54,537 nucleotides of DNA from positions 1 through 54,537 of the forward strand of contig DAORNH010000002.1 in assembly GCA_035440865.1 (NCBI GenBank). Reading direction: 5' to 3'. Made by a program: the position numbers and the translations under genes. Each line of letters starts with the position of its first letter. Position 1 is the first letter of the stretch. A model generated the notes under the pieces. The model saw only the letters and a list, made by a program, of their open reading frames with translations. It was not told the DNA's origin and made no database searches. Shown here piece by piece: positions 5,640-51,147 of the stretch. This DNA comes from Hyphomicrobiaceae bacterium. GTDB taxonomy: Bacteria > Pseudomonadota > Alphaproteobacteria > Rhizobiales > Hyphomicrobiaceae.

Positions 5640-6899
5640 ATGGCGCGTGCCTTGAACAAGCTGAGTGCCCGGGCAGTTGCTACCCTTCGCACGCCGGGCC
5701 GTCATGGCGATGGCGGCGGCCTCTATCTGGCCATCTCGGCCGATGGCACGCGGCGGCGCTGGGTGTTTCTGTACACGCTGAGAGGCCAGCGGCGGGAAAT
5801 GGGTCTGGGTGCAGTGGCGGACGTGTCCCTCGCAGAGGCCCGCGAGAAGGCGATGGAAGCCCGCCGGATAGTCAAGGCAGGCACGGACCCCATCGCGGCC
5901 CGGGAGGCCACCAAGGCCGCCACGCGGGCGACTGAGGCCGCTGAGAGAGCAATCGTTACCTTTGGGGCCTTTGCAGACGCCTATGTGGATCGGATGAGCC
6001 CGGCTTGGCGGAACGAAACCCACCGGGAGCAGTGGCGCACGACCTTGCGCGTTCACGCCGCAGTGCTGCGGGACATGCCGATTGACGGGGTGGATACCGA
6101 TGCCGTCTTGCGGGTGCTGGAGCCTATCTGGAACCGTATCCCCGAAACCGCTGCCCGCTTGCGCGGGCGGATCGAGAATGTGCTTGATGCAGCCAAGGTG
6201 CGGGGTCTGCGCACTGGCGAAAACCCGGCACGGTGGCGCGGGCACCTGCGCAACATCCTGCCAAAGCGCCAGCGCTTGACGCGTGGCCACCATGCAGCCA
6301 TGCCCTTCGCTCAAGTGCCATCCTTCCTGAGTGCCCTGCGTGCCCGGCAGTCAACCGCCGCACGCGCACTGGAGTTCTGCATTTTGACGGCGGCCCGTAC
6401 GGGCGAGGTCTTGGGGGCGCAATGGGATGAATTTGACCTTGATGCGGCTATCTGGACGGTTCCGGCCACGCGCATGAAGGCCCAGCGCGAGCACCGGGTG
6501 CCGCTTTGTGCGCGGGCGGTGGTAGTCATCCGCGAGATGGCGTTGGCCAGAATGGGCGCGCACGTCTTTCCGGGCCATCGCGCGTCTGGCCTGTCCAACA
6601 TGGCGATGGCTAAAGCGCTGGAAGCAAGTGGACAAGGTGCCTTCACCGTGCACGGCTTCCGGAGCAGCTTCCGAGACTGGGCTGCCGAGGCCACCAGCTT
6701 TCCCAGCGACATTTGCGAAATGGCACTTGCGCACACGATTGGCAACAAGGTGGAAGCAGCCTATCGGCGGGGTGATCTCTTCAATCGCCGCCGCGAATTG
6801 ATGGAGGCATGGGGCCGCTATTGCGCGGATGCTGAGCGCGGCGTGATTCGGCTGGTCGACTTGCCGAAAGACGCATTGCGCAATAAAATTGCGAGCTAA
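5640..6899 (+). CDS. int: Tyrosine recombinase/integrase, P4-like with an N-terminal Arm DNA-binding domain
   Basis: N-terminus LSARAVATLRTPGRHGDGGGLYLAISADGTRRRWVFLY (DUF4102-type). C-terminal catalytic region HGFRSSFRDWAAE...LAHTIGNKVEAAYRRGD. Confidence 0.92.
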   Translation: MARALNKLSARAVATLRTPGRHGDGGGLYLAISADGTRRRWVFLYTLRGQRREMGLGAVADVSLAEAREKAMEARRIVKAGTDPIAAREATKAATRATEAAERAIVTFGAFADAYVDRMSPAWRNETHREQWRTTLRVHAAVLRDMPIDGVDTDAVLRVLEPIWNRIPETAARLRGRIENVLDAAKVRGLRTGENPARWRGHLRNILPKRQRLTRGHHAAMPFAQVPSFLSALRARQSTAARALEFCILTAARTGEVLGAQWDEFDLDAAIWTVPATRMKAQREHRVPLCARAVVVIREMALARMGAHVFPGHRASGLSNMAMAKALEASGQGAFTVHGFRSSFRDWAAEATSFPSDICEMALAHTIGNKVEAAYRRGDLFNRRRELMEAWGRYCADAERGVIRLVDLPKDALRNKIAS

Positions 6900-7081: not shown

Positions 7082-7990
7082 ATGGGCAGCACCAACGGGC
7101 GCGAAACATATCGCCGCGCAAAGAAGCGGCAAAAGTCACTCTCACCTGACCATATCATTGGAACAGTGGGCGCATACTGGGAAGGCGAGACCCACAACTT
7201 CACCAAAGAGGACTTTGCGGAGCTGCATCGGCTGGCTAAGCGGGCGGGGTCAAAGGCGACGCTGGAAGAAGTCCACGACCGGGCAACCCAAGTTGCAGGC
7301 GAAGTGCATGAGGTGCTGCACAATCTGACAGGTGTCATGCCAGCGAGCGAGCGGGCGAAGAGTGCATCGCTGATCCACTCGGCAATTGGCCAGATTGAAC
7401 GGGCGCTGGGCTACTATCAATGGGATGAGGATGCGCTATGGCGAACGAACGGTGCGGGCGGTTCAATCGCTATGCTGGAGCGATTGGCAAGCCATGCCTT
7501 TGTGCAGACCAACAAACTGGACCGGGAAGACGCGCAAAATTTGCGAAAAGATGAAACCGCAATCTCACGGAGGCTGCGGGCGCTGCAAATCGGAGTGCCC
7601 TATAAGGGCGAGTTGCCACCACCGCGACATTGGCGGGGAATTGCGATTGACAGCGCCATCAACACTCTTCCGGTGCGCCTCAGAGTCCTTCGCCTCGCAT
7701 GTGAGAGTTTCCTGCAAGCCCCGCCTGCAAAACGCCCGCGCGTCAAGACACTCCGGCTGGGCGATAGATTCATCCGCTCTGCCAGTGACGCATGGCGAGA
7801 ATTGACCGGCAAGCGGACGCGTTACATCAATCTCGAATTTGCAATGGTGCTCGCCCGGGGAATTGGAATGTCCGTGAGCAAAGATGCTCTCAGAGGCCTG
7901 ATTTACCGGGAAGCAAAGCGGCTTGCTGGGCCTGTTGGCAACAAAATCCCGATCCCGGCCATCACCGCAGCAGCAAACCGGCAAGTTTGA
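7082..7990 (+). CDS. Hypothetical protein, paralog A of a tandem pair
   Basis: Start taken at the internal ATG (MGSTNGRETYRR). Shares collinear motifs with the next gene (W..E.H.F..DFAE.H; LP..L.VL.LAC..); no family recognised. Confidence 0.55.
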   Translation: MGSTNGRETYRRAKKRQKSLSPDHIIGTVGAYWEGETHNFTKEDFAELHRLAKRAGSKATLEEVHDRATQVAGEVHEVLHNLTGVMPASERAKSASLIHSAIGQIERALGYYQWDEDALWRTNGAGGSIAMLERLASHAFVQTNKLDREDAQNLRKDETAISRRLRALQIGVPYKGELPPPRHWRGIAIDSAINTLPVRLRVLRLACESFLQAPPAKRPRVKTLRLGDRFIRSASDAWRELTGKRTRYINLEFAMVLARGIGMSVSKDALRGLIYREAKRLAGPVGNKIPIPAITAAANRQV

Positions 7991-7994
7991 CTCA

Positions 7995-8903
7995 ATGCCG
8001 CTGCGATCAAGAAAGCCGCCACGGTACAAAAGGCCAACCCGCCTGGAGCGGATTCGGTCGGTACAAGACAGGCCCGAAGGACCCGCCGGGCGACTTTGGA
8101 ATGATGAAAAGCACTTGTTCAATGAAGCCGACTTCGCAGAATTTCATGCGATTGCGCAAGGCGGAGGGCGAGATATGTCCCTCCGACGCGTAAGGCAGAT
8201 CGTGACCCGGGCGGCGATCAATTTCTACGATGACCGGATTCTGGGTGCCGACAAGATGACACCTGGCGAAAAAGTAAGGCATGTCGAAGCGATACGCCGC
8301 GCTGTCAGAGAACTTGAGGGCCGGATTGGCATAGAGGTGATTCCTGAAGGCGAGAAAGTCGCCTCTGGAAGCCGCTCCCAGATTCTCGGTGAGCTGACCA
8401 TCGAAGCTCAGAAATTGGAGCGTTCTTTGGATTTGGGGTGGTTGGCCCGAATTGACAAGAGCACGCTCCAGATCGCGAGGACCCTTCGGTCCATCGCCGA
8501 GCGCCTTTGCCGGAAGTCGCCACTCGACGTCCCCGGACACAACCCGCGCAGCGGCAAGCTGTATGACATCATGGCATTGTTGCCGACATATCTTTGCGTG
8601 CTGTCACTTGCCTGTGACGCATGGCTTCTGAACCCGCCTGAGAAGCAGCCAAAGCGCGCACTTGGTTCGGTGAATAGGACTTTCCTCCATGCCGCAAATG
8701 GGGCGTACCAGCAAATCACGGGCTTAAGTCTCAGCCGCTCCCGCCAATCCATTGCTTTTGCTCGCAGAATGGCCGGCGGGATGGGCTTTGATATTACAGA
8801 TCCTGCCCTCCGAAGCCTTCTGTCCCGCAACCAAGCCGGGACGACCAAGGGCTACCAAGTCCGCCGCCGTGCTCAAACTGCCAAAAAAACAGTTCCAGTT
8901 TGA
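7995..8903 (+). CDS. Hypothetical protein, paralog B of a tandem pair
   Basis: Starts at MPLRSRKPPRY, 5 nt after the paralog A stop. Same length class (~302 aa) and the same motif order as paralog A. Confidence 0.55.
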   Translation: MPLRSRKPPRYKRPTRLERIRSVQDRPEGPAGRLWNDEKHLFNEADFAEFHAIAQGGGRDMSLRRVRQIVTRAAINFYDDRILGADKMTPGEKVRHVEAIRRAVRELEGRIGIEVIPEGEKVASGSRSQILGELTIEAQKLERSLDLGWLARIDKSTLQIARTLRSIAERLCRKSPLDVPGHNPRSGKLYDIMALLPTYLCVLSLACDAWLLNPPEKQPKRALGSVNRTFLHAANGAYQQITGLSLSRSRQSIAFARRMAGGMGFDITDPALRSLLSRNQAGTTKGYQVRRRAQTAKKTVPV

Positions 8904-8979
8904 GCCAAGACAAACAGCGCGGCCATCGGCAACCTTCTGCACATCAGCCGGTTCGTCGGCGATTCAGGAGAGACACGAC

Positions 8980-9186
8980 ATGACCAATTCGGACATTTCA
9001 GCTGCGAAGGATCGCGAGGCCTACTCGATTGCGGAAGCCGCAAAGTTATGGGGGATCGGCCGCACAAGCCTTTACCGCGCCATGTCTGAAGGCCGTTTGC
9101 GCACCCTGAAAATCGGTGCGCGGCGCCTTGTACGGCGAGGCGATTTAGAGGCGTTCATGGAAGCGCATGCAACGCCCACTCCCTAA
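8980..9186 (+). CDS. AlpA/excisionase-family helix-turn-helix DNA-binding protein
   Basis: 68 aa. YSIAEAAKLWGIGRTSLYRAMSEGRLRTLKIGARRLVRRGDLEAFME is a typical MerR-superfamily Xis/AlpA HTH. Confidence 0.8.
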   Translation: MTNSDISAAKDREAYSIAEAAKLWGIGRTSLYRAMSEGRLRTLKIGARRLVRRGDLEAFMEAHATPTP

Positions 9187-10026: not shown

Positions 10027-13000
10027 TCAGTTTAGCCAACTTGCCGAGAGCGCTTCCGCTTGCCGAAGAACCGTTTGCACCGCTGCGTCCTGAAGATCGG
10101 GCGGGTAGCCGTGCTTGCGCAGAATCCGCTTCACCAGCACGCGCATTCGCGCCCTGGCACTTTCCCGGTGTGACCAATCCACTGAAACGCTGCCCTTGAG
10201 GCTGACGAGGAGTTCGTGTGCGATCACCTTAAGGGAATCGTTGCCCATCAGTTCGACGGCGCTCTCGCTTTCGGCCAGGGCATCATAGAAAGCGATTTCG
10301 TCCTGCGACAGGCCTTCATCTTCACCGCGCTTGCGGGCGGCGCGGACTTCCTTTGCGAGGTCGATGAGTTCCTGCAGCACCTCGACGGTGCTGATCGCGT
10401 TCGTGTGGTAGCGGGCAATGGCGGCTTCGAGGCGCTCGGAAAAGCGCTTGGTCTCGACCACATTCGTTCTGCTGCGGGAACGGATTTCATCGTTCAACAG
10501 CTTCCGCAACGCCTCAAGCGCGAGGTTTTTCTTTTCGAGCTGTTGAACCTCGACGAGGAACTCGTCCGACAGGATTGATATATCCGGCGTCGTGATGCCC
10601 GCGGCAGCGAGAATGTCCAAGATCTCGGTTGAAACGACTGCCCGATCCAGGATCTGCTGGATTGCGAACTCCCGATCCGCACTGCTCTTTCCTGAGCCTT
10701 CTGCCGATTTCACGAGGGCGGCACGAACCGTCTGGAAGAATCCTACTTCATCGCGAATGTCGCGGGCCTCATCGCTTGCGGATGCCAGGGCGAATGCCTT
10801 GGAAAGCGCCAGCACTGCATCCAGGTATCGACGATTTTCGCGGCGCTTGCCGTCCTCGCTGGTTTCCTTGGCCGCGGCGTCGTGCTGGCGACCAAGTATC
10901 CATTCGATCGCTTCGGCGAGCACGACCAGGCGCTGATGCGGCGTACCAGCCAAGCCTCGCGCATAATCGAAGCCGTGGTACATTGCCGACACGACCTCGT
11001 ACTTCTCAAGCAGCACGGCAACCGCTTCGGCCTTATCGATCCCCGCCTGCCGCTGATCGGAACCGGAATACTGGCCGAGCGCGTTCTTGAGGTTCTGGGC
11101 GATGCCGATGTAGTCGACGACGAGGCCGGCAGGTTTGTCGCGGAAGACCCGGTTCACCCGGGCGATGGCCTGCATCAGCCCGTGGCCCTTCATGGGCTTG
11201 TCGACATACATCGTATGCATCGACGGCGCGTCGAAGCCGGTCAGCCACATGTCACGGACGATCACGAGCTTCAGCGCATCGTTCGGGTCTTTGGCGCGCT
11301 TGGCCAAGAGATCGCGCCTGGCCTTGGTTCCGATATGCGGTTGCCAACTCGGCGGATCGGCAGCCGAACCGGTCATCACAACCTTGACTTCACCCGCTGC
11401 GTCGTCGTCGTTGTGCCAATCGGGCCGAAGCGCGATGATCAGGTCATAGAGCGCCACGCAGATACGACGGCTCATGCAGACCACCATCGCCTTGCCGTCC
11501 ATCGCGGCAACCCGGTCCTCGAAGTGCCGCACCAGATCGGCGGCAACCATCGCCAGCCGCTTCCGAGATCCGACCAACGCCTCTATGGTCGCCCACTTGC
11601 GCTTGATCTTCTCCTGTTCGGTGACCGCCTCGTCTTCGGTCAACTCCGCAATCTCGGCATCGATCTTTGGCTTCTCCTCGTCGGGAAGCTCGATGCGCGC
11701 AAGGCGGCTCTCGTAGTAGATCGGGACCGTGGCGCCATCTTCCACCGCCCGGCTGATGTCGTAAACATCGATGTATTCGCCAAACACTGCCGGGGTATTC
11801 ACGTCGTCCTGTTCGATCGGCGTTCCGGTGAACCCTATGAAGGAGGCATTTGGAAGGGCATCGCGCAGATACTTTGCAAAGCCGTAGGCGATCTCGCCGG
11901 TCTTCTGTTCGATCCGCGCCTTGAAACCATATTGGCTTCGATGGGCTTCGTCGGCGATCACGACAATGTTCCGGCGATCCGACAACATGGGATAGGTCGC
12001 CTCGCCGGCTGCCGGCGAGAACTTCTGAATGGTGGTGAAAATCACTCCGCCGGAGGCACGGCTGAGTGTCGATTGCAGATCCTCCCGGCTGTCCGCCTGA
12101 ATGGGCGTTTGCCGGATCAGATCGCGGCACATCGAAAACGTGCCGAACAGCTGATCGTCGAGATCGTTGCGGTCCGTGATCACGATGATCGTCGGGTTCT
12201 CCATCGCCGGGTGCCGTACCAGCTGGCCGGCGTAGAACGCCATCAGCAGGCTCTTGCCAGACCCTTGCGTATGCCAGATCACCCCGATGCGCTTATCCCC
12301 TCGGGGATAGTCCGTGACGCCGGGAAGCCCATAGGCTGCCGGCTCCTCATGAAAGCCTGCCATACGATGCGCGCTCGCGGACGTACCGGCATTCATGGCA
12401 AGGGCGCGCACGGTTGATTCCACGGCGCGACGCACGGCATGGAACTGGTGATACCCCGCGATGATCTTCGCAAGGCCGGTGCCCGTTTCGCCGAACACCG
12501 TGAAATCGCGCAGCAGATCGAGCAGGCGGCGGCGATCAAAAATCCCTTCAATCAGGACGTCGAGTTCCGGCTGGCCCTTGGCGGCAATGACCTTGCCGTC
12601 CGTGGTGCGCCAGGGCATGAAGCGCTCCCGATCGGCGGTCAGCGAGCCGACGCGTGCCGTCATGCCGTCCGAGATCACAAGAACGGCGTTCGTCCGGAAG
12701 AGCGAGGGGATTTGCGCCTTGTAGGTCTGAAGCTGGTTGTGGGCGCCGGCGAGCGTCGCGGTCTCGCCGCCCGGCGCTTTCAGTTCGATCACGCCAAGCG
12801 GCAGCCCGTTGATGAAAACAACGATATCCGGCCGCCGGTTGACGCTGCCCTCAATCACCGTGAACTGGCCGGTCGCCTGCCAGTCGTTTACGGCAAGATC
12901 GTCGAAATCGATCAGGCGGACCTTGTCACCCCGGATCGTCCCGTCATCGCTATAGAACTCGACATCGACGCCCTCAACCATCAGCTTGTGCAAGCGACGG

Positions 13001-13257
13001 TTCTCTTCGACGAGCGACGGCATTTCGGTGGCAAGCACCTTCCGTAGCGCATCACTACGCGCCTCAGCCGGGATCGCGGGGTTCAGCCTTTCGATGGCCG
13101 CTGTCAGGCGCTTGAGGAGAACGACATCGGCATAGGCCTCTCGCTCGGGCGCCTTGCCATCCGGGCCGATCTCGGCGTCGGTCGCGAGTGCGTAGCCGAG
13201 GCCACCGAGATGATCGAGGACCACCTTTTCAATGGCTGCTTCTGAAAGATATGCCAT
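10027..13257 (-). CDS. hsdR: Type I restriction enzyme R subunit
   Basis: 1076 aa. N-terminal nuclease region ([13 protein letters not shown]), helicase motifs ([19 protein letters not shown]), long helical C-terminus. GGAGGA Shine-Dalgarno upstream. Confidence 0.93.
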
Positions 13258-13305
13258 CAGGCGATCCTCCCAATGGTTCCGAGTTTGACGAAGACGGCAA
13301 TCCGC

Positions 13306-14331
13306 CTAATCATGAAAGCCTCCTTCCATGAGCGAGATAAGCAGATCTTCGATCGCCTGGTCATGGTCTTCGGGCGGATACCAAATCGGATGAATGTCCG
13401 CCTGGCCAAGCTCGTTCCGCCTGGCTTCACGGTCCATACCTTCGCTCAGCGGTAAGAAAGCGTAGTGGCGAGGCGTCTCTACGACGGCGTCCTGTTTTAT
13501 TTCACGGAGCGCATAAACCGTTCGATCCACCGACAGACTACATCCGAGAAAGAGCAAGCTTGTATTGGCAATCAGCAGCTTGAAAAGCTCTCGATAGTTG
13601 CCGCCGTCTCCATAGCAGGCTGTGTATTCCCCGCCGGTGAGAACGCGGCCTTGAGCGCTATCTGCTTCACCATGAAGCCGGAGAAGGCAATGAGGTTCAT
13701 CCGCAAGCCTTCGCGGTGCCTCATTCAGTCGAGTCCCAGAGAACTCGCCCTTCAGGCGGCAATCGGAAGCTTCATAGACGCGGTTCAGGACATAGTCGAA
13801 GTTCGTTGTCAGGCAACCACGTTTGAAGATCAGCGGAAGCAGTTGTACCGGTCCCCTCAAGGCCTTCACGCGTGAGCCGAACGCATTTTGAACCGCCTCG
13901 GCAAAGACATCTGGTCCCATACGATCAAGCACCAGCTGAGCCGCTTCTTCGTATCGATATGCCGCCAGGTGGGCGCGAACGTCGTCGGCAATAGCGGGAT
14001 AGTCTGCGGTCAATCCTGCTAGAAACGCGCCCCATAAAGGAAAGCCTGTCGGCCGCGAAAGGCCCGCCCCGACAAACGGGATAACGCTTTGTCGTTTGAG
14101 CTGCGTGTGCAGCCGGTTGAACCGATCAAGGCAATTGAACCGCTCAAGGAACTCGCGCGCGCGATCCATGGCGTTCTGTTTCTGGCTTGCAACCCAGTCC
14201 AGAAAATGCGCCTCGTAGTCGAGCGGCGCCATCGTCTTAAGGACATCGGCGGGAGGCCATTCAAAGGTCCGGACGGTGACTAGGCCCTCATCGTTGAGCT
14301 CTTCGACGAAGCGCTGACGGAAATACTCCAC
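13306..14331 (-). CDS. SIR2-like (SIR2_2-type) domain protein embedded in the R-M operon
   Basis: Motifs VIPFVGAGLSRPTGFPLW, CLTTNFDYVL, LLRLHGE and SLLFLGCSLSVD appear in SIR2_2 order. GTG start with a GGAGGTG Shine-Dalgarno. 12 nt after the hsdS stop and 48 nt before hsdR. Confidence 0.75.
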   Translation of the reverse strand: MEYFRQRFVEELNDEGLVTVRTFEWPPADVLKTMAPLDYEAHFLDWVASQKQNAMDRAREFLERFNCLDRFNRLHTQLKRQSVIPFVGAGLSRPTGFPLWGAFLAGLTADYPAIADDVRAHLAAYRYEEAAQLVLDRMGPDVFAEAVQNAFGSRVKALRGPVQLLPLIFKRGCLTTNFDYVLNRVYEASDCRLKGEFSGTRLNEAPRRLADEPHCLLRLHGEADSAQGRVLTGGEYTACYGDGGNYRELFKLLIANTSLLFLGCSLSVDRTVYALREIKQDAVVETPRHYAFLPLSEGMDREARRNELGQADIHPIWYPPEDHDQAIEDLLISLMEGGFHD

Positions 14332-14343
14332 GCCGCACCTCCG

Positions 14344-15559
14344 TTAAGCCGATAAGGCCGCGTCACCGACGCGAACTTCGCCCGACATGAGCTTCGGAAG
14401 CAGGAACTCGCGCGTGGTGGCGAGGGTGCGGTTTTCCTTGTCGTTGGCGACGATCCTATCAAACAGGGGCTTGGCCGTCTCGTCGAATGACCGAAGGAGT
14501 TCGAGTGCCGGGACGGTCACTTCGATCGGTCGGAAGTTTGCTTTGCTGATTTCCTGAAAGGTCGATCCATTGGCGTTCTGATGGACCGTCTCCATGTTGG
14601 CTTGCGTCCATTGCCAGACGAAGACGTTGGACAAGCGCTTGTTGCAGATCATCGCGATGAAGCCCTGATTGACCGCAACCGGAATCTGGGCGATCGCCAT
14701 GTAGCCGATCGGGGCACGCGATGAGAGAAGCACCGTTCCGGCAGGCAGCAAGCCAGAGCCAATCTGGGACAGGCCAGCTTCGGTGATCTGCCGTTCCGTG
14801 CTGAGCAGCACCGGAGTGCTCAACGACGAGAGGTCTTTCGGAGTCGCCCAAGCGACGTCGCCGCCCCAGAAGGAAGGCTCTTTCGTGCTCGGCGTTGAGC
14901 CGCCGAGAACTTCGACTTCTTGGCCGATCGTGGAAGTGATCCACCCCTCCGGCTTGCCTTCATCGTCGAGGCGGTCGGGGAAAAGGGACCAGATGTCCGG
15001 GGCGAGGTAGGGCGCGCGGCCCTCAATCTTCGCGCGGGTCGGGCCGAAGTCGACGAACCAATCCTTGAAGATCGCCCGCGCCATCGCCTCCAGCGTCTCG
15101 TTCATCCGCCGGTTCAGCTCGATCTTGTCATCAAGCGCACCGAGCACGGAGGCGATAGCTTCTTGCACGAGTGGGGACGCCCATGCGATGCGGTGTCCTA
15201 TCAGATCACGGCGAGTTATCTGAGGCTGTGCCGAACCAGTAACAACCGAATACGGCGGGGAATTAAGTAACGAATAAAACAAAAAGCGGTTGCTGCCTGC
15301 CCGTGGCAGAATAGCCATGGCGTTGTTCGAAACCCAAAGCGGACCTTTTGCCCACAAAACCATACCGCTGTTTGAACCGCGGCATGTCACGAGAGGTACG
15401 CCCTCAGGGTACATTGGCGCAGAAGTCCAGCCAATGATCCCATTCGCCCCGTGAACCGGAATAGGAAAATCGGCAGACGCTTGCTCCGCCATCTCCTCTT
15501 TTGAGAGATATCGACCTTGTTGAATCTCAACAATTTCAGAAAGTGCCGTCGGAACGATC

Positions 15560-15567
<8 letters not shown>
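14344..15567 (-). CDS. hsdS: Type I R-M specificity subunit
   Basis: Two target-recognition halves separated by a conserved helical spacer ([30 protein letters not shown]) and a C-terminal [12 protein letters not shown]. The ATG start overlaps the hsdM stop by 8 nt. Confidence 0.9.
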
Positions 15568-17374
<1,807 letters not shown>

Positions 17375-17570: not shown

Positions 17571-20500
17571 TCATTCGAGGACAGTGTAAACTTGGCTCGG
17601 CATTTTGTCGCCGCAAAGAGTTTTCTCGCGTTTCGCCTTCCAAGCCTTTGCGCGATGTTTCAGCTTGCTGTGGATACTGGGCTCGAACCATCCTATCGCT
17701 GCGCCACTACGCGGAACCGAGGTTTTCCACAATCCGACTCGCGCATCGACAATCTTGAGAAACAGGATGCTGAACGCCCAGAACTCTTCGGGAGAATTGG
17801 TGGCGCACATCTTTTCGAACCAGTGCCGCGCCCAGCGGTTTCGATCATATGCGAAGCGCGCCGCCTTCGCCGCGTTACCGATCAGACCTTTGGCGTCCGC
17901 ATATCGGTCCAGCAACGCTTCGGATGTGGTTGATTCCATGCCGAAGCCGATCACCATGAGAGCCCGTGCATTGGCAGCAGGTTCAGGGCGTTCCAAATTC
18001 TTGCGCGCGTACTGTTCAAGGAACGCTGCCTCCCCGGCCATTAGGGCCGCCAGCACCTCTTGCGCCAACTGATGGTCATTCGCCGCGCGATCCAGCCGCT
18101 GCGCCCGCAGCTCATCCAGCGCGCCGCCATCGGCACTCTCCCAGATGCAGATGGCCTCAAGCGACACGCCCGAGAGGCCGGACACCAGGCTGACGAAAGC
18201 CCGCCTGCCTGAGAGGCGGTCGAACAGTTTGCGGGCGAGCGTCAGGTCGTGGCGGGAAACCGACCTTGCCAGCATCAAGGCGAAGTTCTGGACGTGCATG
18301 AGCTTGCGATCGTCCAGGCCAAGGAGCTGTCCGACCAATGCGGCGCAATGATCCGGCGATGTCGAAACGCACGCATCGACCGCTTCAAAGCCCACGTCCT
18401 CCAGGATGAGCCGCGCCTTTTCATTCGTTAGCGCCGTCTCAAACCGATTGTACGCCTCCCACCCCTGGCGCTGGCGCGCTTCAAAGTCTTCCGGCGTTTC
18501 AGACAGGCGCTTGAAGAATGCCTCGGGGCCTAAGACTTCATCGGGCTCCGCCAACGACAGGAGCGGCGGGATCGGACGGCCTGCCATCTCCATGTCCTGC
18601 TCAACAGAAGGCGGCAAGAACGGCAGTTCAATATCAATCGCCTTTGCGGCTGCTGCGGTGAGGCGCGCGGCAATTGCCGCGTGGCACTCCGCTCCGAGCA
18701 CCTCCGCCGCGACGCTGCAGAGGCGCGGGGTAGTCCTGTCCAACGCCTCATCGGCGCTGATCATCCCTTGCTCGGCCGCATTGATGACAATGAGCGAGCC
18801 ATACCAAATCTCGAAGTGGTTCTTCCGAGGATCGAGCAAGGCGGCGCTCCATCCGGTAGCTATCACCCTTTCGATCAGATCGCGGTCTTTCAAGTGCGCG
18901 ATAATGTCCATTGCTTCCGCGCGCACTGACGATCGCTCATTCTCCGCGAACTGCCCGACGAGAGTCCGGCTGCGCGGGGTCAGAATCGTGCCGGAGCACC
19001 GCGCGAACAACAGCGCGACAAGTGCCCTGTTGTGCTCGGCCGACTGCATTGCTTGATTCAGCGACCATTCCAGCTTCTCGGGCATCGCCGGCTTCAGCAC
19101 TTCGGCCAGCTTGAGCAAGGGTGGGCCGTGAGACGGCAATGCGGCCAGGTGGTCGAGCTGCCGATCGCCACCCAGGTGGGGGAATGCGATCTGGATGGCA
19201 TATTGCGAAGCGATCCAGTTATCGTGGGAGTCCTTGGATTCTGGCTCGCGCGGCGAACTAAGCGTATTTGCGATTTCAACGAGCTTGCCAACCGTCTCGG
19301 AATCCAGCGCTGCGCAATGCGGCTCCAGCAAAGTGATACCTCGCATGAGCTCCGCTGATTCGCGGGCGACGATTGATCGTGCGATTTTGCGCTGGGCCTC
19401 GATCGCCACTTCCGGCGCGAACCGGACCAGCCCCGGAAGCGCGTCCCTCACAAAGTGATCCTCCTCGCCCATAGAGGCGTGGCGTGCCACTTCTTCAGCA
19501 TCGACTTGCGAGTATTTATCGGCGGTCACATCGAGATTGTCCGGCTTTGTGGATGCAGGATCACAAGGATCGGTGGCACAGTATTTTTCGACGAGCCTCC
19601 ATCCCCCGAATTTCTCCCGATCCTTGGTAAGCGCCTCGATGAGCTGCTCTGCGCGCCCGGCGTCCTCGACGGTGCTGATGCCCCGCAAGATCGCCACCAG
19701 CGCCCATTGGCCCGTCTGCGATGTATCCTTCTGCGCCAGGAAATCCGACGCCTCAAGGAGCAGCTTCCGCGTCTCCTGCCAGTCACGGCGGTTGTAACGG
19801 ATCAGCGCGAGATACTCGTCGTATGGCGCCCGGAAGCTTGAATTGAGGGCACGCGAAAAACTGCACGCGACAAGCTGCTCGGCAAAGCCCGCCAGCGGCA
19901 TCCCGGCCAGCATCTCGAAGGCATCCTGATGGAGCAGCGAAGGATCGTAACCCTTGCACTGAAGCATGTTCCTTTCGAGGAACACTCGTTCCGCCGCGGA
20001 CAGCTCCGCCATTTTCCGCGCGAGCGCTTGGATCTCCTCCTCCGTGTCCTTGGCGACCTTATCATCGCTGTCGTGGCCGGGGGTGCTCATCACGCCGATT
20101 TTCGGATCGAGGGAATAGGAGCGGAGCCAGTTCGACACATGCTTGCTGATGATCGCCCAGCATTCCGGTTTGTGTCGGCACTTACGCAGGGCCGCCGAAA
20201 GCCAGTCCTTGTTGGCTGCATAGCGGGAGTTCGCCGCCGAGAGATCGAACAGCGCCAACATCGCCGCATCCGTCGCGTTGCGCGCGACGGCGACAAACGC
20301 CGGGTAGTTCTGCGCGTCGACATTCTGGAGACGCAGGAAACCGCAAATGAGAGCGCGCCTGATCGCCAGTGAGCATTGCTCATCGATGCTGGACACCATG
20401 ACGCCGGAGAAAACCGCATCGGCGGTCTTGTCGAGGGCAGCGATCGGCTCAATCAGCTCGTCCAGCGCATCGGCCACATCGCGCCCGTTGCGCTCGGCCT

Positions 20501-22259
20501 TCTGCAGCGCCTTGATGATCGAGAGGCCGAGCGCCAGCGAAAGCCCGCCATCGGCAAGAGCATATAGAGTGGAATCCTCCGGGAGCGGCCGGAAGAAATG
20601 CTCTGCTGTGACGGCGAGAAGGTCGGCGCTCAGGGCGTGTCCGCCTTTGCCGTCGGCGCGGTCGAAGATCAACCGGTCTTCGCGCTGTTGCTGCTTCACT
20701 CGGTCGATTATGTCCTGGGCGTGTTGCGCCAGCCGCTTTGAGAATTGATCCGGCGGCTCCGCAGCGTTCCCGTCGTGCGCGCCGACGCGGATATGCTCGA
20801 AGAGCAGTCTTTCCACGCTCAGCTCGTCGAAGTTCTTAACCTCGACCTTGTCCAGCAGGTCGAAAGCGATCCCCAGAATGCGTGGGTTGCGGAGCCGCGT
20901 GAGCACCGCCGGTTTAATCTTGCTCGCGTCGATGCCTTTGGCCACGAGAATCTCTTTCAGTTCCCGCTCCGTCCATTCCGGTACGCGTACGGTGGCGATC
21001 TTGGAATGCACCGCAGAGCGTATGCGCTCGTCAAAATAGCTCTCGCGCGAAGTTATGGTGAGAGTACCGCCTAGCTGCTCAACGACCATGGCGGCGTCAT
21101 CAAGCCATCGCGGCCAGTCAAATCCAGGCTGCTGGTTGAGACCGTCGACACACAAGATGAAGCGGGGCGATGCCTCGTTTGCCTGCTCCTTCCATCGCGC
21201 GAGCCGCCTTTCCCAGCGTTTGCGGGGGATTTCCGTGTCGCTGTCGTCAGTCTGCTGGATCAGCTTCGAGGTCAGAAAGGGCGTGAGGCTCCCGTACGCC
21301 GCAACCGGCTTGAGGTCGGTCGCCGGGATCACGACCAGCAGCGGGCGGACGCCAAGTTCAAGCCAGCTCTGCGCAAGCAGCCATGATTTTCCGCTTCCTT
21401 CTCCTCCGACGAGCGCCACGATCTTGCGCGAGGGGGCCGCCGACAGATGCTGATGAACTTGCTCCACGATGGCGGAACGTTGCCGAAGCGAGAGCGCTCC
21501 TTCCGCGTTCGGTGCGAGAACCTGGCCGAAGGCTGCCTTGGCGCGCCGCCGATCCGCGAAAACAGCCTCAAGCCACTTTGCATTGGCGCTCCTCGCATTG
21601 GCCTGTCCAAGCGAGGATTCCTGAAGCTTCTGGACAAGAGCATCAGCGCTTGCGCGAAACGTTTCCGCTCTCTGGATTGCGGCGAGCGCCGCTTCCGCCC
21701 TCTCAACGCATTCAACTTCATTGAGGTGTTTCCTAAGAAACACGGAGGTTTCTTCGCTCGCGAGAGCGCAAGCGGCGGCCAGCGGCGGAATGGCGGAAGC
21801 GCTTGGCCAGTCCAGCACAAGTATGCCAATGCCGTTCTTGGCGGCGGCGGTATGCATTGGGTCGAGCAATTGCGTGCTTGCCTCGACCGTGGCGCCGAAA
21901 ACCCACACGTCAGGCGGCGCGCCGCTGCCGATCAACCGCGTAATCTTTGTCAGAACCTCGTTATCGTTGATCTTTTTATTGTAAAGCTTGCCCTCAAAGG
22001 AGATGTGATTGCTCGCAGTAGAGGATGTCGCGCCGTCTTTCCCATTCTGCAGGCCGGATTTGGCCAAACGAAAATCCTGCCCGGACGCTTTACTCAAAAC
22101 GCACGCGAGAAGGCCCTCAAAACCCGCTGGTCCCGCAGGTTCAAGGCTGAGCAACGCATCGCGCAGGTGGCCCACGTGCTTCGAAAGAAGATGGTTGCGG
22201 GCTTCCGTCCCCTTTGCTGAACCGTCCGTGTCAGGAGCGTCGCTCTTGTTGCTGGTCAT
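17571..22259 (-). CDS. Giant defence-type protein with an N-terminal PD-(D/E)xK (Mrr-like) nuclease, a P-loop STAND-like NTPase and a ~1100-aa helical C-terminal region (Avs-like architecture)
   Basis: FEGLLACVLSKASGQDF...NGKDG...ISFEGKLY matches the D...ExK pattern. Walker A is VALVGGEGSGKSWLL and Walker B is RFILCVDGLNQ. Start set at the ATG for MTSNKSDAPD. The ORF track extends it to 22415. Confidence 0.7.
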   Translation of the reverse strand: MTSNKSDAPDTDGSAKGTEARNHLLSKHVGHLRDALLSLEPAGPAGFEGLLACVLSKASGQDFRLAKSGLQNGKDGATSSTASNHISFEGKLYNKKINDNEVLTKITRLIGSGAPPDVWVFGATVEASTQLLDPMHTAAAKNGIGILVLDWPSASAIPPLAAACALASEETSVFLRKHLNEVECVERAEAALAAIQRAETFRASADALVQKLQESSLGQANARSANAKWLEAVFADRRRAKAAFGQVLAPNAEGALSLRQRSAIVEQVHQHLSAAPSRKIVALVGGEGSGKSWLLAQSWLELGVRPLLVVIPATDLKPVAAYGSLTPFLTSKLIQQTDDSDTEIPRKRWERRLARWKEQANEASPRFILCVDGLNQQPGFDWPRWLDDAAMVVEQLGGTLTITSRESYFDERIRSAVHSKIATVRVPEWTERELKEILVAKGIDASKIKPAVLTRLRNPRILGIAFDLLDKVEVKNFDELSVERLLFEHIRVGAHDGNAAEPPDQFSKRLAQHAQDIIDRVKQQQREDRLIFDRADGKGGHALSADLLAVTAEHFFRPLPEDSTLYALADGGLSLALGLSIIKALQKAERNGRDVADALDELIEPIAALDKTADAVFSGVMVSSIDEQCSLAIRRALICGFLRLQNVDAQNYPAFVAVARNATDAAMLALFDLSAANSRYAANKDWLSAALRKCRHKPECWAIISKHVSNWLRSYSLDPKIGVMSTPGHDSDDKVAKDTEEEIQALARKMAELSAAERVFLERNMLQCKGYDPSLLHQDAFEMLAGMPLAGFAEQLVACSFSRALNSSFRAPYDEYLALIRYNRRDWQETRKLLLEASDFLAQKDTSQTGQWALVAILRGISTVEDAGRAEQLIEALTKDREKFGGWRLVEKYCATDPCDPASTKPDNLDVTADKYSQVDAEEVARHASMGEEDHFVRDALPGLVRFAPEVAIEAQRKIARSIVARESAELMRGITLLEPHCAALDSETVGKLVEIANTLSSPREPESKDSHDNWIASQYAIQIAFPHLGGDRQLDHLAALPSHGPPLLKLAEVLKPAMPEKLEWSLNQAMQSAEHNRALVALLFARCSGTILTPRSRTLVGQFAENERSSVRAEAMDIIAHLKDRDLIERVIATGWSAALLDPRKNHFEIWYGSLIVINAAEQGMISADEALDRTTPRLCSVAAEVLGAECHAAIAARLTAAAAKAIDIELPFLPPSVEQDMEMAGRPIPPLLSLAEPDEVLGPEAFFKRLSETPEDFEARQRQGWEAYNRFETALTNEKARLILEDVGFEAVDACVSTSPDHCAALVGQLLGLDDRKLMHVQNFALMLARSVSRHDLTLARKLFDRLSGRRAFVSLVSGLSGVSLEAICIWESADGGALDELRAQRLDRAANDHQLAQEVLAALMAGEAAFLEQYARKNLERPEPAANARALMVIGFGMESTTSEALLDRYADAKGLIGNAAKAARFAYDRNRWARHWFEKMCATNSPEEFWAFSILFLKIVDARVGLWKTSVPRSGAAIGWFEPSIHSKLKHRAKAWKAKREKTLCGDKMPSQVYTVLE

Positions 22260-22918
22260 TAGGCATCTCAACCTGAATCTATTGACGGAAGCGGAAGTCT
22301 CACTGGAGTAGACAAACTTCGGCGCGGTATTTCGAGCGTGAGCCGCGCCGCGTGGCCCAACTTGTCGAGGAAACAAATCGATAAAGGAGTTGGCCGACGT
22401 CAATCCATGCAACAATGACCGGGCAACGATTGCGTGGTGAGCAGCGATAAGGCAGTTTGGCAGTTCAAGCTATTGGGTTGATCGGCATGTGGCATGTATG
22501 CGCCAATGGGTCCGCTTTGACCAATCGCGGTTCATTCAATCTCGCGTCACTCGGTCGGCTTTCGGATTGAATAAAAAACTTGTTCCGGCACAAGTAGGAA
22601 AGGGGAACGTGTGCGCCGCCGTGCCAACTTATGCGGAACTATTCGGGGCCACCGATTCCGATTATTGCGGGAAATCGAAAATAGAAATAGGGGCCGGAAG
22701 TGGGGCCAGGCGCGTGAAAAAGCGAAAAACTTAGTCAAATCAATGGTAGATGGCGGAGGGGATGGGTCTGATATCCAACCTTCTCTGGCGCGGCTCTACT
22801 CCGAATTGCACAGGTTCCGCAAGCTGGCTCGTGCGTAGATCCGGCAGTCGTCCCTTCACCGATTGCCCGCGGCAATCCTAATCTCGACTTATTGCGCTGA
22901 CAGGAATAGCTTGACCTT

Positions 22919-23350: not shown

Positions 23351-24814
23351 ATGTCCTATCCACGTCTTCCGGCGCTGACGCGTCGAGCCTTCCTCGCATC
23401 AGCCGCCGTTGTCTCGGCGAGCACGATTCTTCGATCGCAAGCCCGCGCGACGAGCGTTCGGGCGTTCCACTTGCGCGCCGGATACGGTCGGGCCCAGATC
23501 GCACCCGAACCCTACGGCCAGACACCCGTCTGGTGCTATGACGGGAGCCTGCCTGGCCCGGAGATCCGCGTCCGTCAGGGAGAACGCCTGCGGATCGCGG
23601 TCGCGAACGCGTTAGACGAGGAAACGACAGTGCATTGGCACGGCGTGCGCGTCCCGAACGCCATGGACGGCGTGCCTCACCTCACTCAGGCGCCGATCGC
23701 GCCCGGCGAAGTATTCGTTTATGAGTTCGACGCAGTCGATGCGGGCACCTTCTGGTATCACCCGCACCATCGCAGCTTTGAGCAGGTCGGACGCGGTCTC
23801 TACGGCCCAATGATCGTGGAGGAAGCCGTTCCGGTCCAAGTCGACCGCGATCTCACGTGGCTGCTGTCCGACTGGCGGCTGACCAGATCGGCGGAGGTGC
23901 GGGATGATTTCGGCAACCGCCACGACATGATGCACAACGGCCGGGTGGGCAACACGGTCACGATCAACGGCCGCGTGCCAGATACCTTTCCTGTGCGCAA
24001 GGGAGAGCGCATTCGCCTGCGCCTGATCAACGCCGCCAACGCACGGATCTTCGGTCTCGATTTCGGGAGCCATGAGCCCGTCGTCATTGCGCTCGACGGA
24101 CAGCCGGTCGAGCCGCATGCGCCGGAAGGTCGGCTGGTGGTCCTCGGACCCGCCATGCGCGCTGACGTCATCCTCGACATGACCGCTGATGCAGGAAGCC
24201 AGGTTTCCGTGGTGGATCGTTTCTACGAGGGGCTGGAGTACCGTCTGGTTGATCTTGCCTACGAGAAGCAGCCGCTGAGGGACACGGCACCAGACTGGCC
24301 GCTCGCCCTCCCGCCAAACCCGCTGCCGGAGCCAGAGCTCGCGACGGCCGCCCGTCACGAGGTCACCTTCAACGGCGGCATGATGGGAGCCATGGTCATG
24401 CAGGAGATGGGCGGCAGCATGGGAGAGGCCGCGCCGGGAGGCATGATGGGCGGGATGGGCTCGATGATGAACATGATGCATTCCGGCGGCATCTGGTTCG
24501 TCAACGGCGTGGCGGCGGAAGGTCACATCATGGACCCGATACTGACGCTGGCGCGGGATAAAAGCCATGTCATCGCGATGACGAACGCGACGGCCTGGCA
24601 TCACCCGATCCACCTGCACGGCCATTCCTTCCGGGTGATCTCCCGGAACGGCAAGCCGACCCGCCACCGCGAATGGCAGGACACGGTGCTCATGTCACCT
24701 CGAGAGCGCGTCGAGATCGCTTTCGTCGCCGACAATGTGGGCGACTGGATGCTCCACTGCCACGTTCTCGAACATCAGGCCGCAGGAATGATGGGTGTCT
24801 TCCGCGTCGCCTGA
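23351..24814 (+). CDS. Multicopper oxidase (CopA/PcoA-type) with a Tat signal and a Met-rich insert
   Basis: Twin-arginine leader LTRRAFLASAAV. Copper ligand motifs HWHG, WYHPH, HPIHLHGH and HCHVLEHQAAGMM. Met-rich loop MMGAMVMQEMGGSMGEAAPGGMMGGMGSMMNMMH. Confidence 0.92.
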   Translation: MSYPRLPALTRRAFLASAAVVSASTILRSQARATSVRAFHLRAGYGRAQIAPEPYGQTPVWCYDGSLPGPEIRVRQGERLRIAVANALDEETTVHWHGVRVPNAMDGVPHLTQAPIAPGEVFVYEFDAVDAGTFWYHPHHRSFEQVGRGLYGPMIVEEAVPVQVDRDLTWLLSDWRLTRSAEVRDDFGNRHDMMHNGRVGNTVTINGRVPDTFPVRKGERIRLRLINAANARIFGLDFGSHEPVVIALDGQPVEPHAPEGRLVVLGPAMRADVILDMTADAGSQVSVVDRFYEGLEYRLVDLAYEKQPLRDTAPDWPLALPPNPLPEPELATAARHEVTFNGGMMGAMVMQEMGGSMGEAAPGGMMGGMGSMMNMMHSGGIWFVNGVAAEGHIMDPILTLARDKSHVIAMTNATAWHHPIHLHGHSFRVISRNGKPTRHREWQDTVLMSPRERVEIAFVADNVGDWMLHCHVLEHQAAGMMGVFRVA

Positions 24815-27515: not shown

Positions 27516-28015
27516 TGTGATACGGGCGCTCCGTGGCCTTCGTGGTTCTGAGGCGCTTCCGGCGTTGCGCCCATCGGCACAATCGCGAACTCCACCGCGA
27601 CATCGCCGGCCTTCTCGAAGGTAAGCGTTGCCGGAAAGCGCTCGCCGTCCTTCAGCGGCTTTGCCGGATCGACGAACATGATGTGGGCGGCGCCGGGCTC
27701 CAGCCTGAGGGTTTCGCCGGGCGCGATTGCAATTCCGTCTTCGGCGGGACGCATCCGCGCCACGCCGTCAGTTATTGTCGACTCGTGAATCTCCACGGCC
27801 TCGGCGGCATCCGAGGAGCCGCCGAGAAGGCGGTCGGGCTCGGTGCCGGTGTTGGTAATGGTGAGATAGCCGCCAGCGACTGGTGCTCCGGGCGGCGTCG
27901 CCCGCGCCCAGGGATGGTCAATCGCGAGTGGCCCGGCCTCGTAGTCATGAGCAAGCACACCCTGCGTTGCCGCGCTCAGTACCAGGCCGAGCGCGAGGGT
28001 CTTCACCAGTTTCAT
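27512..28015 (-). CDS. PCuAC (DUF461) periplasmic copper chaperone
   Basis: Signal peptide, IDHPWARATPPGAPVAGGYLTITNTG...AVEIHES...HIMF. ATGA overlap with the ATPase stop. Confidence 0.85.
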   Translation of the reverse strand: MKLVKTLALGLVLSAATQGVLAHDYEAGPLAIDHPWARATPPGAPVAGGYLTITNTGTEPDRLLGGSSDAAEAVEIHESTITDGVARMRPAEDGIAIAPGETLRLEPGAAHIMFVDPAKPLKDGERFPATLTFEKAGDVAVEFAIVPMGATPEAPQNHEGHGAPVSQ

Positions 28016-30219: not shown

Positions 30220-30251
30220 GATGTCACCTCGACTTGTTCGATGTGACATCG

Positions 30252-30282
30252 CATATAGACCCTGTAGCAACTACAGGGTCAA
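30252..30282 (-). promoter_or_regulatory. MerR-type promoter for the ATPase operon: -35 TTGACC, 19-bp spacer containing a perfect dyad, -10 TATATG
   Basis: The minus strand reads TTGACC-ctgtagttgctacagggtc-TATATG. The perfect 10-bp inverted repeat gaccctgtag-caa-ctacagggtc spans 30258-30280. Confidence 0.75.
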
Positions 30283-34304: not shown

Positions 34305-35189
34305 TCAGGCCTTGGCGCCGCTCGCCGATGCGGCCTCTCGAAGATCGTTGCGGGCATCGCGGATGATCGACCACGCCGACTGCAGGAACAGCCCGGCCAC
34401 GGCAAACGCCACGATCAGATCCGGCCAGGGCGAATTCAGCGCCCATACGACGCCGGCCGCGACCACTACGGCGAGGTTGCCAATTGCGTCGTTGCGTGAA
34501 AACAGCCACACGGCGCGCATGTTGGCATCGCCCTTCCGGTGCGGCAGCAGCACCACGGCCGCGAGCACGTTGACGATCAGGGCGACGATGGCAAAACCCG
34601 CCATCAGCAGCGTTTGGGGCTCGTGCTCGACGAAGACGCGGTAGAACGTCGAGCCGATCACGCCAAAGCCGAGCAGCGCGAGAAAGATTCCCTGCAGCAG
34701 TGCCGCGCGGGCTCGCGCTGCAAGGCCCCAGCCCACGGCTATCAGCCCAAGGAACGAGATCAGACCGTCGCCGATGAAGTCGAGCGCGTCGGCCTGCAGC
34801 GCTTGCGAGCCCGCGAGGAAGCTGCCGCCGATTTCAATGACGCCGTAGCCAACGTTCAGCAGAACGACGATCCATAGGGCCCGCTTATAGGCCGGCGTGA
34901 CATGCGACAGATCTGGGATGCGGTCGTCGTCATCATCCTCGGCGGCATCGGCCGAAGCCTTGGCCGCGCCGATACGGTCGAGTTGGTAACCGAGCTCGCT
35001 CACCGCATTTTCAACGACGGGCAGTCGGGCGGCTGGATCATCGACCTCAAGCGTCATGATCTGCGAGGCGATCGACACCTTTACATCGGAGACACCGGAG
35101 ACCTTGCGCGCTGCGCCTTCGATTTTGGCGGCGCACGAGGCACAATCCATGCCCGTGACGTGATAGCGGGCCGTGGCGGGAGCAGTCAT
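34305..35189 (-). CDS. Cation diffusion facilitator (CDF) membrane domain fused to an N-terminal HMA metal-binding domain
   Basis: YHVTGMDCASCAAKIE HMA, an acidic linker (EDDDDD), then a CDF TM core (ALQADALDFIGD...). No obvious C-terminal cytoplasmic CDF domain. Confidence 0.8.
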   Translation of the reverse strand: MTAPATARYHVTGMDCASCAAKIEGAARKVSGVSDVKVSIASQIMTLEVDDPAARLPVVENAVSELGYQLDRIGAAKASADAAEDDDDDRIPDLSHVTPAYKRALWIVVLLNVGYGVIEIGGSFLAGSQALQADALDFIGDGLISFLGLIAVGWGLAARARAALLQGIFLALLGFGVIGSTFYRVFVEHEPQTLLMAGFAIVALIVNVLAAVVLLPHRKGDANMRAVWLFSRNDAIGNLAVVVAAGVVWALNSPWPDLIVAFAVAGLFLQSAWSIIRDARNDLREAASASGAKA

Positions 35190-44934: not shown

Positions 44935-44937
44935 GGG

Positions 44938-47541: not shown

Positions 47542-47553
47542 GATCGCCCTCCG

Positions 47554-51132: not shown

Positions 51133-51147
51133 GACGGACAGGCGAAA

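Follow-up and report, generated by a model that had tools for sequence, protein, structure and literature searches.

A SIR2-domain gene directly behind hsdS in a type I restriction-modification operon, possibly encoding a latent NAD+-consuming partner of the restriction enzyme

For suicide effectors that are restrained by the HsdMS part of a type I restriction-modification (R-M) enzyme, the precedents are PrrC (PMC3632139) and RonA (bioRxiv 10.1101/2023.04.06.535777). In the prr locus of E. coli (EcoprrI, type IC), the prrC gene lies directly after hsdS and before hsdR, which gives the order hsdM-hsdS-X-hsdR, and PrrC is almost confined to the hsdS-hsdR context (Payne et al. 2024). In the Ronin system (Silas et al. 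2023, the preprint cited above), RonA was proposed to be held by HsdMS and to be freed by ArdA, Ocr or Aop1. The association of SIR2 genes with type I R-M is not new either: Makarova, Anantharaman, Aravind and Koonin (2012, PMC3506569) named Sir2 among the toxin-like genes linked to these systems, next to PrrC. In this work, we examine such a SIR2-like gene, located in a stretch of 54,537 nucleotides (nt) from a Hyphomicrobiaceae bacterium (contig DAORNH010000002.1 of assembly GCA_035440865.1), which is called the window below.

We will show that the gene codes for a protein with the defence-type SIR2 fold and conserved catalytic residues, and that its relatives are found nearly always directly 3' of hsdS. 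By analogy with PrrC and RonA, the gene may encode a latent NAD+-hydrolysing SIR2 effector that accompanies the type I R-M enzyme as an accessory partner, a reading to which we assign a probability of roughly 45%. The NAD+-hydrolysing (NADase) activity, the binding to HsdS or HsdMS, the latency and the identity of the trigger are what we infer in this proposal. The arrangement would probably provide restriction with a suicide back-up.

The operon has the following elements, in the order of the coding strand:

15560 to 17374, minus strand: hsdM, methyltransferase subunit, 604 residues (Pfam N6_Mtase 9.3e-106, HsdM_N 3.4e-26)
14344 to 15576, minus strand: hsdS, specificity subunit, 410 residues from a TTG start (Pfam Methylase_S 4.5e-26, two stretches)
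14332 to 14343, minus strand: hsdS-SIR2 spacer of 12 nt, CGGAGGTGCGGC, which holds the GGAGGTG ribosome-binding site (sequence reading)
13306 to 14331, minus strand: SIR2-like gene, 341 residues from a GTG start, predicted NAD+-consuming effector (Pfam SIR2_2 2.6e-18)
13258 to 13305, minus strand: SIR2-hsdR spacer of 48 nt, between the SIR2 stop codon (13306 to 13308) and the hsdR ATG at 13257
10027 to 13257, minus strand: hsdR, restriction and translocase subunit, 1076 residues, EcoR124I-like family (Pfam HSDR_N, SWI2_SNF2, T1R_D3-like, T1RH-like_C)

The identities of the Hsd subunits were assigned on the basis of Pfam, PADLOC and NCBIfam profiles. In addition to the Pfam matches given above, the hsdM product matches PADLOC MTase_I (2e-209) and has an NPPF motif in its translation, while hsdS matches PADLOC Specificity_I (8.6e-88) and contains an in-frame ATG three codons inside the TTG start. 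HsdR reaches 590 bits with TIGR00348 (NCBIfam), its best match in the PDB is the HsdR of EcoR124I (1e-32), and a DEAH box is present in the translation. Residues 1-94 of HsdM (17093 to 17374, minus strand) form an N-terminal extension of about 94 residues before HsdM_N that has no Pfam match; the length of HsdM is highly variable across the SIR2-linked operons, which means that this extension is not constant.

A reading made earlier from the letters of the DNA and their translations (the sequence-only reading) had placed a 341-residue SIR2-like open reading frame (ORF) at 13306-14331, with a GGAGGTG and GTG start of its own, 12 nt behind hsdS and 48 nt ahead of hsdR. All of this is borne out, the strand being minus. 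The hsdS stop codon TAA (14344-14346) is followed by CGGAGGTGCGGC and then by the GTG of the SIR2 gene; the stop and the start are 15 nt apart, so that read-through would be in frame. The GTG start aligns with Met1 in 23 of 23 homologs. A scan of the operon for promoters and terminators gave signals no richer than those in shuffled sequence, a result that is neither for nor against a single operon transcript.

In the encoded protein, the following parts can be distinguished:

14137 to 14331, minus strand: N-terminal module, about residues 1-65, with helix, beta-hairpin, helix and long helix (outside every SIR2 alignment)
13396 to 14136, minus strand: SIR2 Rossmann core, about residues 66-312 (profile alignment to BcThsA and residue conservation)
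14062 to 14070, minus strand: codons of G88-A89-G90 in the core
13801 to 13803, minus strand: codon of Asn177 in the core
13672 to 13674, minus strand: codon of His220 in the core
13306 to 13395, minus strand: C-terminal strand and helix, residues 313-341 (IHPIWYPPEDHDQAIEDLLISLMEGG), and the stop codon (conservation)

The SIR2 assignment is well outside what chance would produce. Pfam SIR2_2 (PF13289) matches over profile positions 4-141 of 141 with a score of 66.9 bits (cut-off 24.5; E = 2.6e-18), and it is the only domain that Pfam finds in the 341 residues. A search of the PDB with a profile of 24 family members yields SeThsA (1.4e-16) and BcThsA (4.6e-13), and also EcThsA, FAM118B, KomC and DSR2, every one a SIR2 protein that consumes NAD+, the alignment to DSR2 being limited to residues 64-267 of the SIR2 protein. 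The AlphaFold2 model has a mean predicted local distance difference test score (pLDDT) of 87.5 and a predicted template modelling score (pTM) of 0.86, and its best Foldseek matches are KomC, ThsA and DSR2, with E values from 3e-10 to 1e-8 and target-normalised TM-scores of 0.72-0.77. In the profile alignment, N112 of BcThsA falls on N177 and H152 on H220, and the residues G88, A89, G90, S92, T176, N177, D179, H220 and G221 are invariant in 77 of 77 near-full-length homologs from the loci described below. The sequence-only reading had argued from four motifs, which indeed occur in the order that it gave (VIPFVGAGLS at residues 83-92, TTNFD at 175-179, LHG at 219-221 and LFLGCSL at 260-266); Pfam, the PDB profile search, AlphaFold2, Foldseek and the conservation just mentioned now confirm both the fold and the catalytic pair of Asn and His. 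The protein belongs to the defence-associated SIR2_2 NADase superfamily, and NAD+ hydrolysis is its predicted activity.

In total, 418 homologs of the SIR2 protein were found, and the wider SIR2 core comprises 914 clusters at 50% identity (E <= 1e-30). The same core occurs fused to AbiJ_NTD3, to TIR_2, to a GTP cyclohydrolase II-like domain (GTP_cyclohydro2) and to NB-ARC with TPR (STAND-type), with P0185, P0262, P0235 and P0220 as representatives. Its fusion to TIR, AbiJ_NTD3 and NB-ARC with TPR means that it behaves as an effector module of conflict or immune systems. NCBIfam has no model that matches the SIR2 protein.

There are no CxxC pairs, that is, no zinc-binding Cys4 module, in the 341-residue sequence, and canonical sirtuins are absent both from the PDB sequence matches at E <= 0.01 and from the top 50 fold matches. 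For these reasons, assignment as a canonical sirtuin deacylase of the CobB/Sir2Tm type was rejected. The same data bear on a regulatory function, in which the SIR2 protein would tune restriction, as in alleviation or establishment, by NAD+-dependent ADP-ribosylation or deacylation of an Hsd subunit or of the DNA. Some members of the SIR2 family are indeed deacylases or ADP-ribosyltransferases of proteins, Makarova et al. (2012, PMC3506569) considered mono-ADP-ribosylation of DNA or proteins for these enzymes, and the tight operon coupling fits this scenario as well. However, the proteins that match best in sequence and fold are all defence effectors that hydrolyse NAD+, and not canonical sirtuins, the zinc-binding module is missing, the core is shared with TIR and STAND-type immune modules, and most of the loci picked by HsdM similarity (see below) do without a SIR2 gene. 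We consider a regulatory function to be highly improbable.

Among the known SIR2 effectors, ThsA of Thoeris is the closest solved relative by sequence; its fold also matches (E ~7e-10), and its catalytic Asn and His align. DSR2, KomC (Kongming), LmuA-SIR2 of Lamassu and SIR2-HerA have the same defence-type SIR2 NADase fold as the present protein, and their effectors become active only upon release or assembly by a sensor or partner. Each of the systems Thoeris, DSR, Lamassu, SIR2-HerA, PrrC and Ronin is defined by a partner or domain that is missing here, and the gene therefore belongs to none of them. For Thoeris, the PADLOC ThsA match covers only residues 73-300, against positions 12-230 of the 478 in the model, and the protein ends at residue 341. 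The SIR2 protein has no SLOG domain, and there is no ThsB/TIR partner, the neighbouring ORFs giving no PADLOC match of any kind, so that activation by glycocyclic ADP-ribose (gcADPR) is not expected. DSR1 and DSR2 were rejected on the basis of length (341 vs about 1000 residues) and of the missing C-terminal sensor region of DSR2, and Lamassu and SIR2-HerA because no LmuB/LmuC or HerA gene is present in the operon, the PADLOC LmuA match being confined to the SIR2 part. A KomB gene is likewise absent from the operon, the constant partners being the Hsd subunits only.

Functionally, the gene most resembles PrrC and Ronin. The claim that it occupies the PrrC position holds: it lies directly after hsdS and before hsdR, in the order hsdM-hsdS-X-hsdR, next to an EcoR124I-like HsdR, and the SIR2 family is, like PrrC, nearly exclusive to this context. 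In one locus picked by HsdM similarity (L100), the same hsdS-hsdR interval holds a PrrC/RloC-type AAA_13 protein. There is, on the other hand, no homology between the two effectors. PrrC combines an ABC-ATPase with a HEPN anticodon nuclease that cuts tRNA-Lys, whereas the present protein is a single SIR2 Rossmann domain and a predicted NAD+ consumer; with SIR2_2 as the sole domain and no PADLOC match to PrrC, membership of that family was rejected. Latency, binding to the R-M complex and a Stp-type trigger have been demonstrated for PrrC, while for the SIR2 protein they are proposed by analogy. With Ronin, the locus shares an effector that is genetically tied to hsdS and hsdM. RonA, however, is a 61-residue membrane toxin, and hsdR is usually absent from Ronin, which leaves a decoy, whereas the present operon has a full-length hsdR, an HsdM with the NPPF motif and a 341-residue effector that is predicted to be a soluble enzyme. 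Since hsdR is present with the expected domains and the effector is not a small transmembrane toxin, assignment to Ronin was also rejected.

The proposal of Makarova et al. (2012) contains the same association, the idea of immunity-suicide coupling and the displacement of the toxin relative to PrrC. It consists of one sentence and a figure panel, though, with Sir2 taken as a nuclease or ADP-ribosyltransferase and with no family definition, positional rule or experiment. In the survey of defence genes embedded in other systems by Payne et al. (2024), SIR2 is unmentioned in the text and in the 11 supplementary files. What is new here is the definition of the family, the hsdS-proximal rule, the pattern of two clades with two adaptors, the catalytic conservation and the hotspot control.

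The N-terminal region had been described as about 85 residues long and free of any recognised motif. The second part of this description stands, but the size is closer to 65 residues, because similarity to known SIR2 domains begins at about residues 64-75. The module has pLDDT values of 84-96 in the predicted models, and 89.5 when it is modelled alone. A comparison of its model with the PDB gave no fold match, the best E value being 6.4, and with nothing below E = 6 the N-terminal fold gives no functional clue. The module is a specific trait of the M-S-X-R clade; a sister clade has an unrelated N-terminus of about 90 residues. The mean pairwise identity is 57% in the C-terminal segment, the highest in the protein, compared with 40% in the core and 30% in the N-terminus, and the C-terminal motif is common to the query clade and the sister clade. 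No recognisable sensor domain was found in the protein, either by Pfam or by the PDB fold search of the N-terminal module, and the Hsd proteins are its only constant neighbours that could exert regulation.

We now consider the genomic neighbourhoods. A scan with one genome per species confirmed relatives in at least 237 stretches, and the best 80 were kept for the context analysis, in which the ORF calls were searched with the Hsd proteins of the window and then with profiles iterated from the matches. As these loci were picked by similarity to the query, shared descent inflates the context counts. Among the homologs that have the N-terminal module and enough upstream sequence, hsdS is directly upstream in 57 of 59 and somewhere upstream in all 59. 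For homologs with this module, hsdM is upstream in 54/54 loci and hsdR downstream in 48/49, the exception being L064, with the order M-S-R-X. In the neighbourhood check that the sequence-only reading had proposed, the relatives lie overwhelmingly inside type I R-M operons.

The hosts comprise Alpha-, Beta- and Gammaproteobacteria, Geobacter, Desulfurivibrionaceae, Chlorobiaceae, Hymenobacter, Clostridia and Bifidobacterium, and further Cyanobacteriota, Acidobacteriota, Cloacimonadota and the archaeon Methanoperedens, with identities down to about 30%. The RefSeq annotation agrees independently with our assignment: on Ketogulonicigenium and Vibrio maritimus plasmids, it lists a methyltransferase, an S subunit, a 'SIR2 family protein' and an R subunit. 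Precomputed Pfam matches give the same gene order on a metagenomic contig, and three viral or prophage contigs show M-S-X-R or S-X-R. Between the hsdS stop and the start of the SIR2 gene there are -5 to +19 nt, with a median of 2 (41 loci), which is a typical spacing for translational coupling. Where there is extra cargo, about 20 loci have it between the SIR2 gene and hsdR and others between hsdM and hsdS; it is almost never located between hsdS and the SIR2 gene, the clear case being L013 and a possible one L018. In L013, the insertion (7664-8998) consists of two ORFs of 269 and 134 residues. The co-embedded genes include GmrSD, Abi_2, PIN_12 with Fic, DUF4268, AAA_21, SLFN/AlbA_2, DUF3644, YhcG/DUF1016 and Mrr_cat.

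The sister clade, of about 369 residues, shares the SIR2 core and the C-terminal motif, and the BLASTP alignment to it begins at query residue 68. It is represented by L063, L067, L075, L076, L078, L079, L080, L086 and L089, in which the N-terminal motif PSRAFYFGDR.LY.QE is conserved and the gene starts 1-4 nt after a Methylase_S gene. The operon order is hsdR-hsdM-hsdS-SIR2, with an HsdR of the EcoEI_R_C type (L063, L067, L086 and L089). In L080, a fused R-M polypeptide lies upstream, a 1161-residue ORF with matches to helicase (ResIII/SWI2_SNF2), EcoEI_R_C and N6_Mtase. The terminal location of the sister-clade gene in R-M-S-SIR2 operons shows that the constant feature is the place immediately 3' of hsdS. 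The hsdM-hsdS-X-hsdR slot emphasised by the sequence-only reading is therefore valid within the query clade, but a location between S and R is not what is conserved throughout. A third, unrelated SIR2_2 protein of 597 residues is encoded in L104 (9104-10897, plus strand), a locus picked by HsdM similarity alone, with its start 9 nt downstream of hsdS; the post-hsdS position has apparently acquired SIR2 domains on more than one occasion.

One possible scenario is that the R-M enzyme acts as the sensor, in that engagement of unmodified DNA by the type I complex, for instance with HsdR translocating or stalled, would activate the SIR2 protein, which would then reinforce restriction in a manner similar to short pAgo-SIR2 systems. 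The context evidence, i.e. the operon residence and the tight junction, is the same as for a guard. PrrC is activated by unmodified DNA as well as by Stp according to Makarova et al. (2013, PMC3632139), and the type III system EcoR22I couples restriction with programmed cell death. The sister clade, on the other hand, keeps its adjacency to hsdS while hsdR is at the other end of the operon, which points to HsdS or HsdMS rather than to the motor subunit, although it is compatible with the sensor scenario all the same. In addition, suicide at each restriction event would be costly even when restriction succeeds, and we regard this scenario as unlikely.

Residence behind hsdS is near-exclusive in two R-M families, the junction is tight and a sensor domain is absent; together with the fold and the conserved catalytic residues, we read this most readily, at odds slightly below even, as the signs of a guard. 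In such a mechanism, the SIR2 gene would be co-transcribed with hsdS and probably translationally coupled to it, and the SIR2 protein would dock via its clade-specific N-terminal module on HsdS or on the HsdM2S core, where it would be held inactive. As soon as an invading phage or plasmid has disabled or distorted that complex, through Ocr/ArdA-type DNA mimics or peptides resembling Stp, the SIR2 protein would be released or rearranged. Once freed, it may oligomerise like ThsA, KomC and FAM118B, with the consequence that NAD+ would be depleted and the infection aborted.

If this coupling is real, the small group of systems in which a phage pays for disabling restriction (PrrC, Ronin, PARIS and retron Ec48) gains an NAD+-depleting arm, and a single R-M scaffold can hold effectors of unrelated chemistry. 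The locus would then also offer a compact four-gene system for studying how a sensorless SIR2 domain is silenced and released. The post-hsdS rule, together with two R-M families and two N-terminal modules, provides a testable handle on the docking surface.

The co-occurrence of two SIR2 clades with two N-termini and two type I families fits an adaptor that may be specific to the R-M family. A more far-reaching version of the guard reading would make the SIR2 protein a genuine fourth subunit of certain type I enzymes, docking on HsdS/HsdM2S through interchangeable, family-specific N-terminal adaptors (EcoR124I-like and EcoEI-like), and disturbance of the enzyme by a DNA mimic would unleash NAD+ depletion. 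This version we put forward tentatively, with chances clearly short of even. It would mean the first NADase guard of a restriction enzyme, and it would suggest more generally that the place immediately 3' of hsdS is a guard position, filled alternately by HEPN, ABC-ATPase-nuclease and SIR2 effectors.

As a control, 80 metagenomic loci (L091-L170) were picked by similarity to the HsdM of the window alone, with identities of 56-82%. The commonest cargo between hsdS and hsdR in them is an Abi_C (HEPN-type) protein of about 260 residues, found in 8 loci. Other representatives are Fic, GmrSD, Mrr_cat, the PrrC/RloC-type AAA_13 protein mentioned above and AAA_15/21 ATPases, and cargo without a Pfam match is seen in L160 (10814-12799, 661 residues) and L168 (12157-14481, 774 residues).

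Several results of this control and of the other analyses weigh against a partnership between the SIR2 protein and the R-M enzyme. The SIR2 gene of the present family occurs in only 1 of the 80 control loci (L142), corresponding to about 1 in 46 of the assessable ones, and this rarity among close HsdM relatives means that the R-M system does not need the SIR2 gene. In 36 of the 45 control loci that have both genes, hsdS and hsdR are at least 600 nt apart, the cargo amounting to 0.6-4.5 kilobases; a junction loaded with unrelated defence genes in this way is a general cargo hotspot, with SIR2 as an occasional accessory. Mantel correlations of the SIR2 distances (n = 45) are 0.68 with HsdM and 0.70 with HsdR, much weaker than the 0.96 between HsdM and HsdR, and shared taxonomy could explain the SIR2-Hsd values. 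Their use as evidence of co-evolution was downgraded after the control set had shown close R-M relatives without the SIR2 gene. The N-terminus and the core give the same distance correlations with HsdS, HsdM and HsdR, so that the putative docking module tracks the Hsd proteins no better than the rest. Among the architectures checked, there is no fusion of the SIR2 core to HsdS or to another Hsd domain. PADLOC-DB 2.0 lacks a model dedicated to the family, its LmuA and ThsA models giving only partial matches over the SIR2 part, and would accordingly not list it as a separate system. The searchable literature contains no experimental study or family definition for an hsdS-tied SIR2 gene that we could find. 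Finally, TgvAB, which is embedded elsewhere in the same manner, acts independently of restriction (PMC11411939). The idea of a latent NADase that guards the complex thus retains the fold, the catalytic residues and the R-M context, but it is weakened by the hotspot and by the rarity of SIR2.

These results raise the option of an autonomous hitch-hiker, a single-gene defence with its own phage sensing that rides the hotspot for co-transfer and co-expression, like TgvAB and the BrxU-like GmrSD. It is consistent with the assortment of unrelated genes at the junction (GmrSD, Abi_2, Abi_C, Fic, PIN_12, Mrr_cat, YhcG, SLFN/AlbA_2 and ABC ATPases), with the SIR2 gene turning up in only about 2% of the HsdM-selected loci, with the function of TgvAB without HsdR activity (PMC11411939) and with the 597-residue SIR2_2 protein behind hsdS in L104. 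TgvAB, BrxU/GmrSD and the embedded candidates of Payne et al. have the same inter-hsd position, and genes of this kind co-occur with SIR2 in the roughly 20 loci noted above. These families, however, occur widely outside R-M operons and have sensing domains of their own, whereas the 341-residue family with the query N-terminus is essentially confined to the post-hsdS context, and its gene is nearly always the one nearest to hsdS when other cargo is present. Nor was a sensor domain or known partner found for it by Pfam, PADLOC or the N-terminal fold search. To our knowledge, all characterised SIR2 defence effectors rely on an added domain or partner, which also counts against a hitch-hiker. ThsA has SLOG, DSR2 its C-terminal sensor, and the others HerA, pAgo/APAZ, LmuB/C or KomB. 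We judge the hitch-hiker to be an unlikely explanation as well, and keep the latent partner of the R-M enzyme as the preferred one.

With regard to the surroundings of the operon, the G+C content is 55-61% over 1-24 kilobases, where the operon lies, compared with mostly 62-70% beyond. A gene for a P4-type tyrosine integrase is found at 5640-6899 (plus strand; Arm-DNA-bind_3, Phage_int_M and Phage_integrase), and no tRNA genes were found in the window. The R-M/SIR2 operon probably sits on a horizontally acquired, integrated island, as judged from these features.

Such a location is of relevance to another scenario, an addiction module, in which a SIR2 toxin neutralised by HsdMS would kill cells that lose or silence the operon and thereby stabilise the island. 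The logic is the same as in the guard model, the operon is on an integrase-bearing island of lower G+C content with relatives on plasmids, and the toxin gene is distal to the putative antitoxin genes. Nothing in silico separates addiction from the guard model. Against addiction, decayed loci such as L039 lose all of the genes together, and the wide chromosomal spread suggests a benefit beyond stabilisation. We consider addiction to be very unlikely, and the guard, as stated, remains our preferred reading.

Upstream of hsdM, on the same strand, is an Ala/Leu-rich ORF of 1614 residues (17571-22415, minus strand) that ends 196 nt before it. It gives no match in Pfam, PADLOC or PDB sequence searches, and none of the remaining SIR2 loci has a homolog; it is perhaps a large, uncharacterised protein of the island. 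Beside the island there are heavy-metal genes, namely a multicopper oxidase (23351-24814, plus strand), a P-type ATPase with an HMA domain (28012-30270, minus strand) and an HMA-containing cation-efflux protein (34305-35189, minus strand). Further on, a cluster that resembles a phage tail or gene-transfer agent extends over 41428-53158 (minus strand), with Rcc01698-like/Phage-tail_3, baseplate hub (phiJL001 Gp84_N and BR0599), tape-measure and tail tube proteins.

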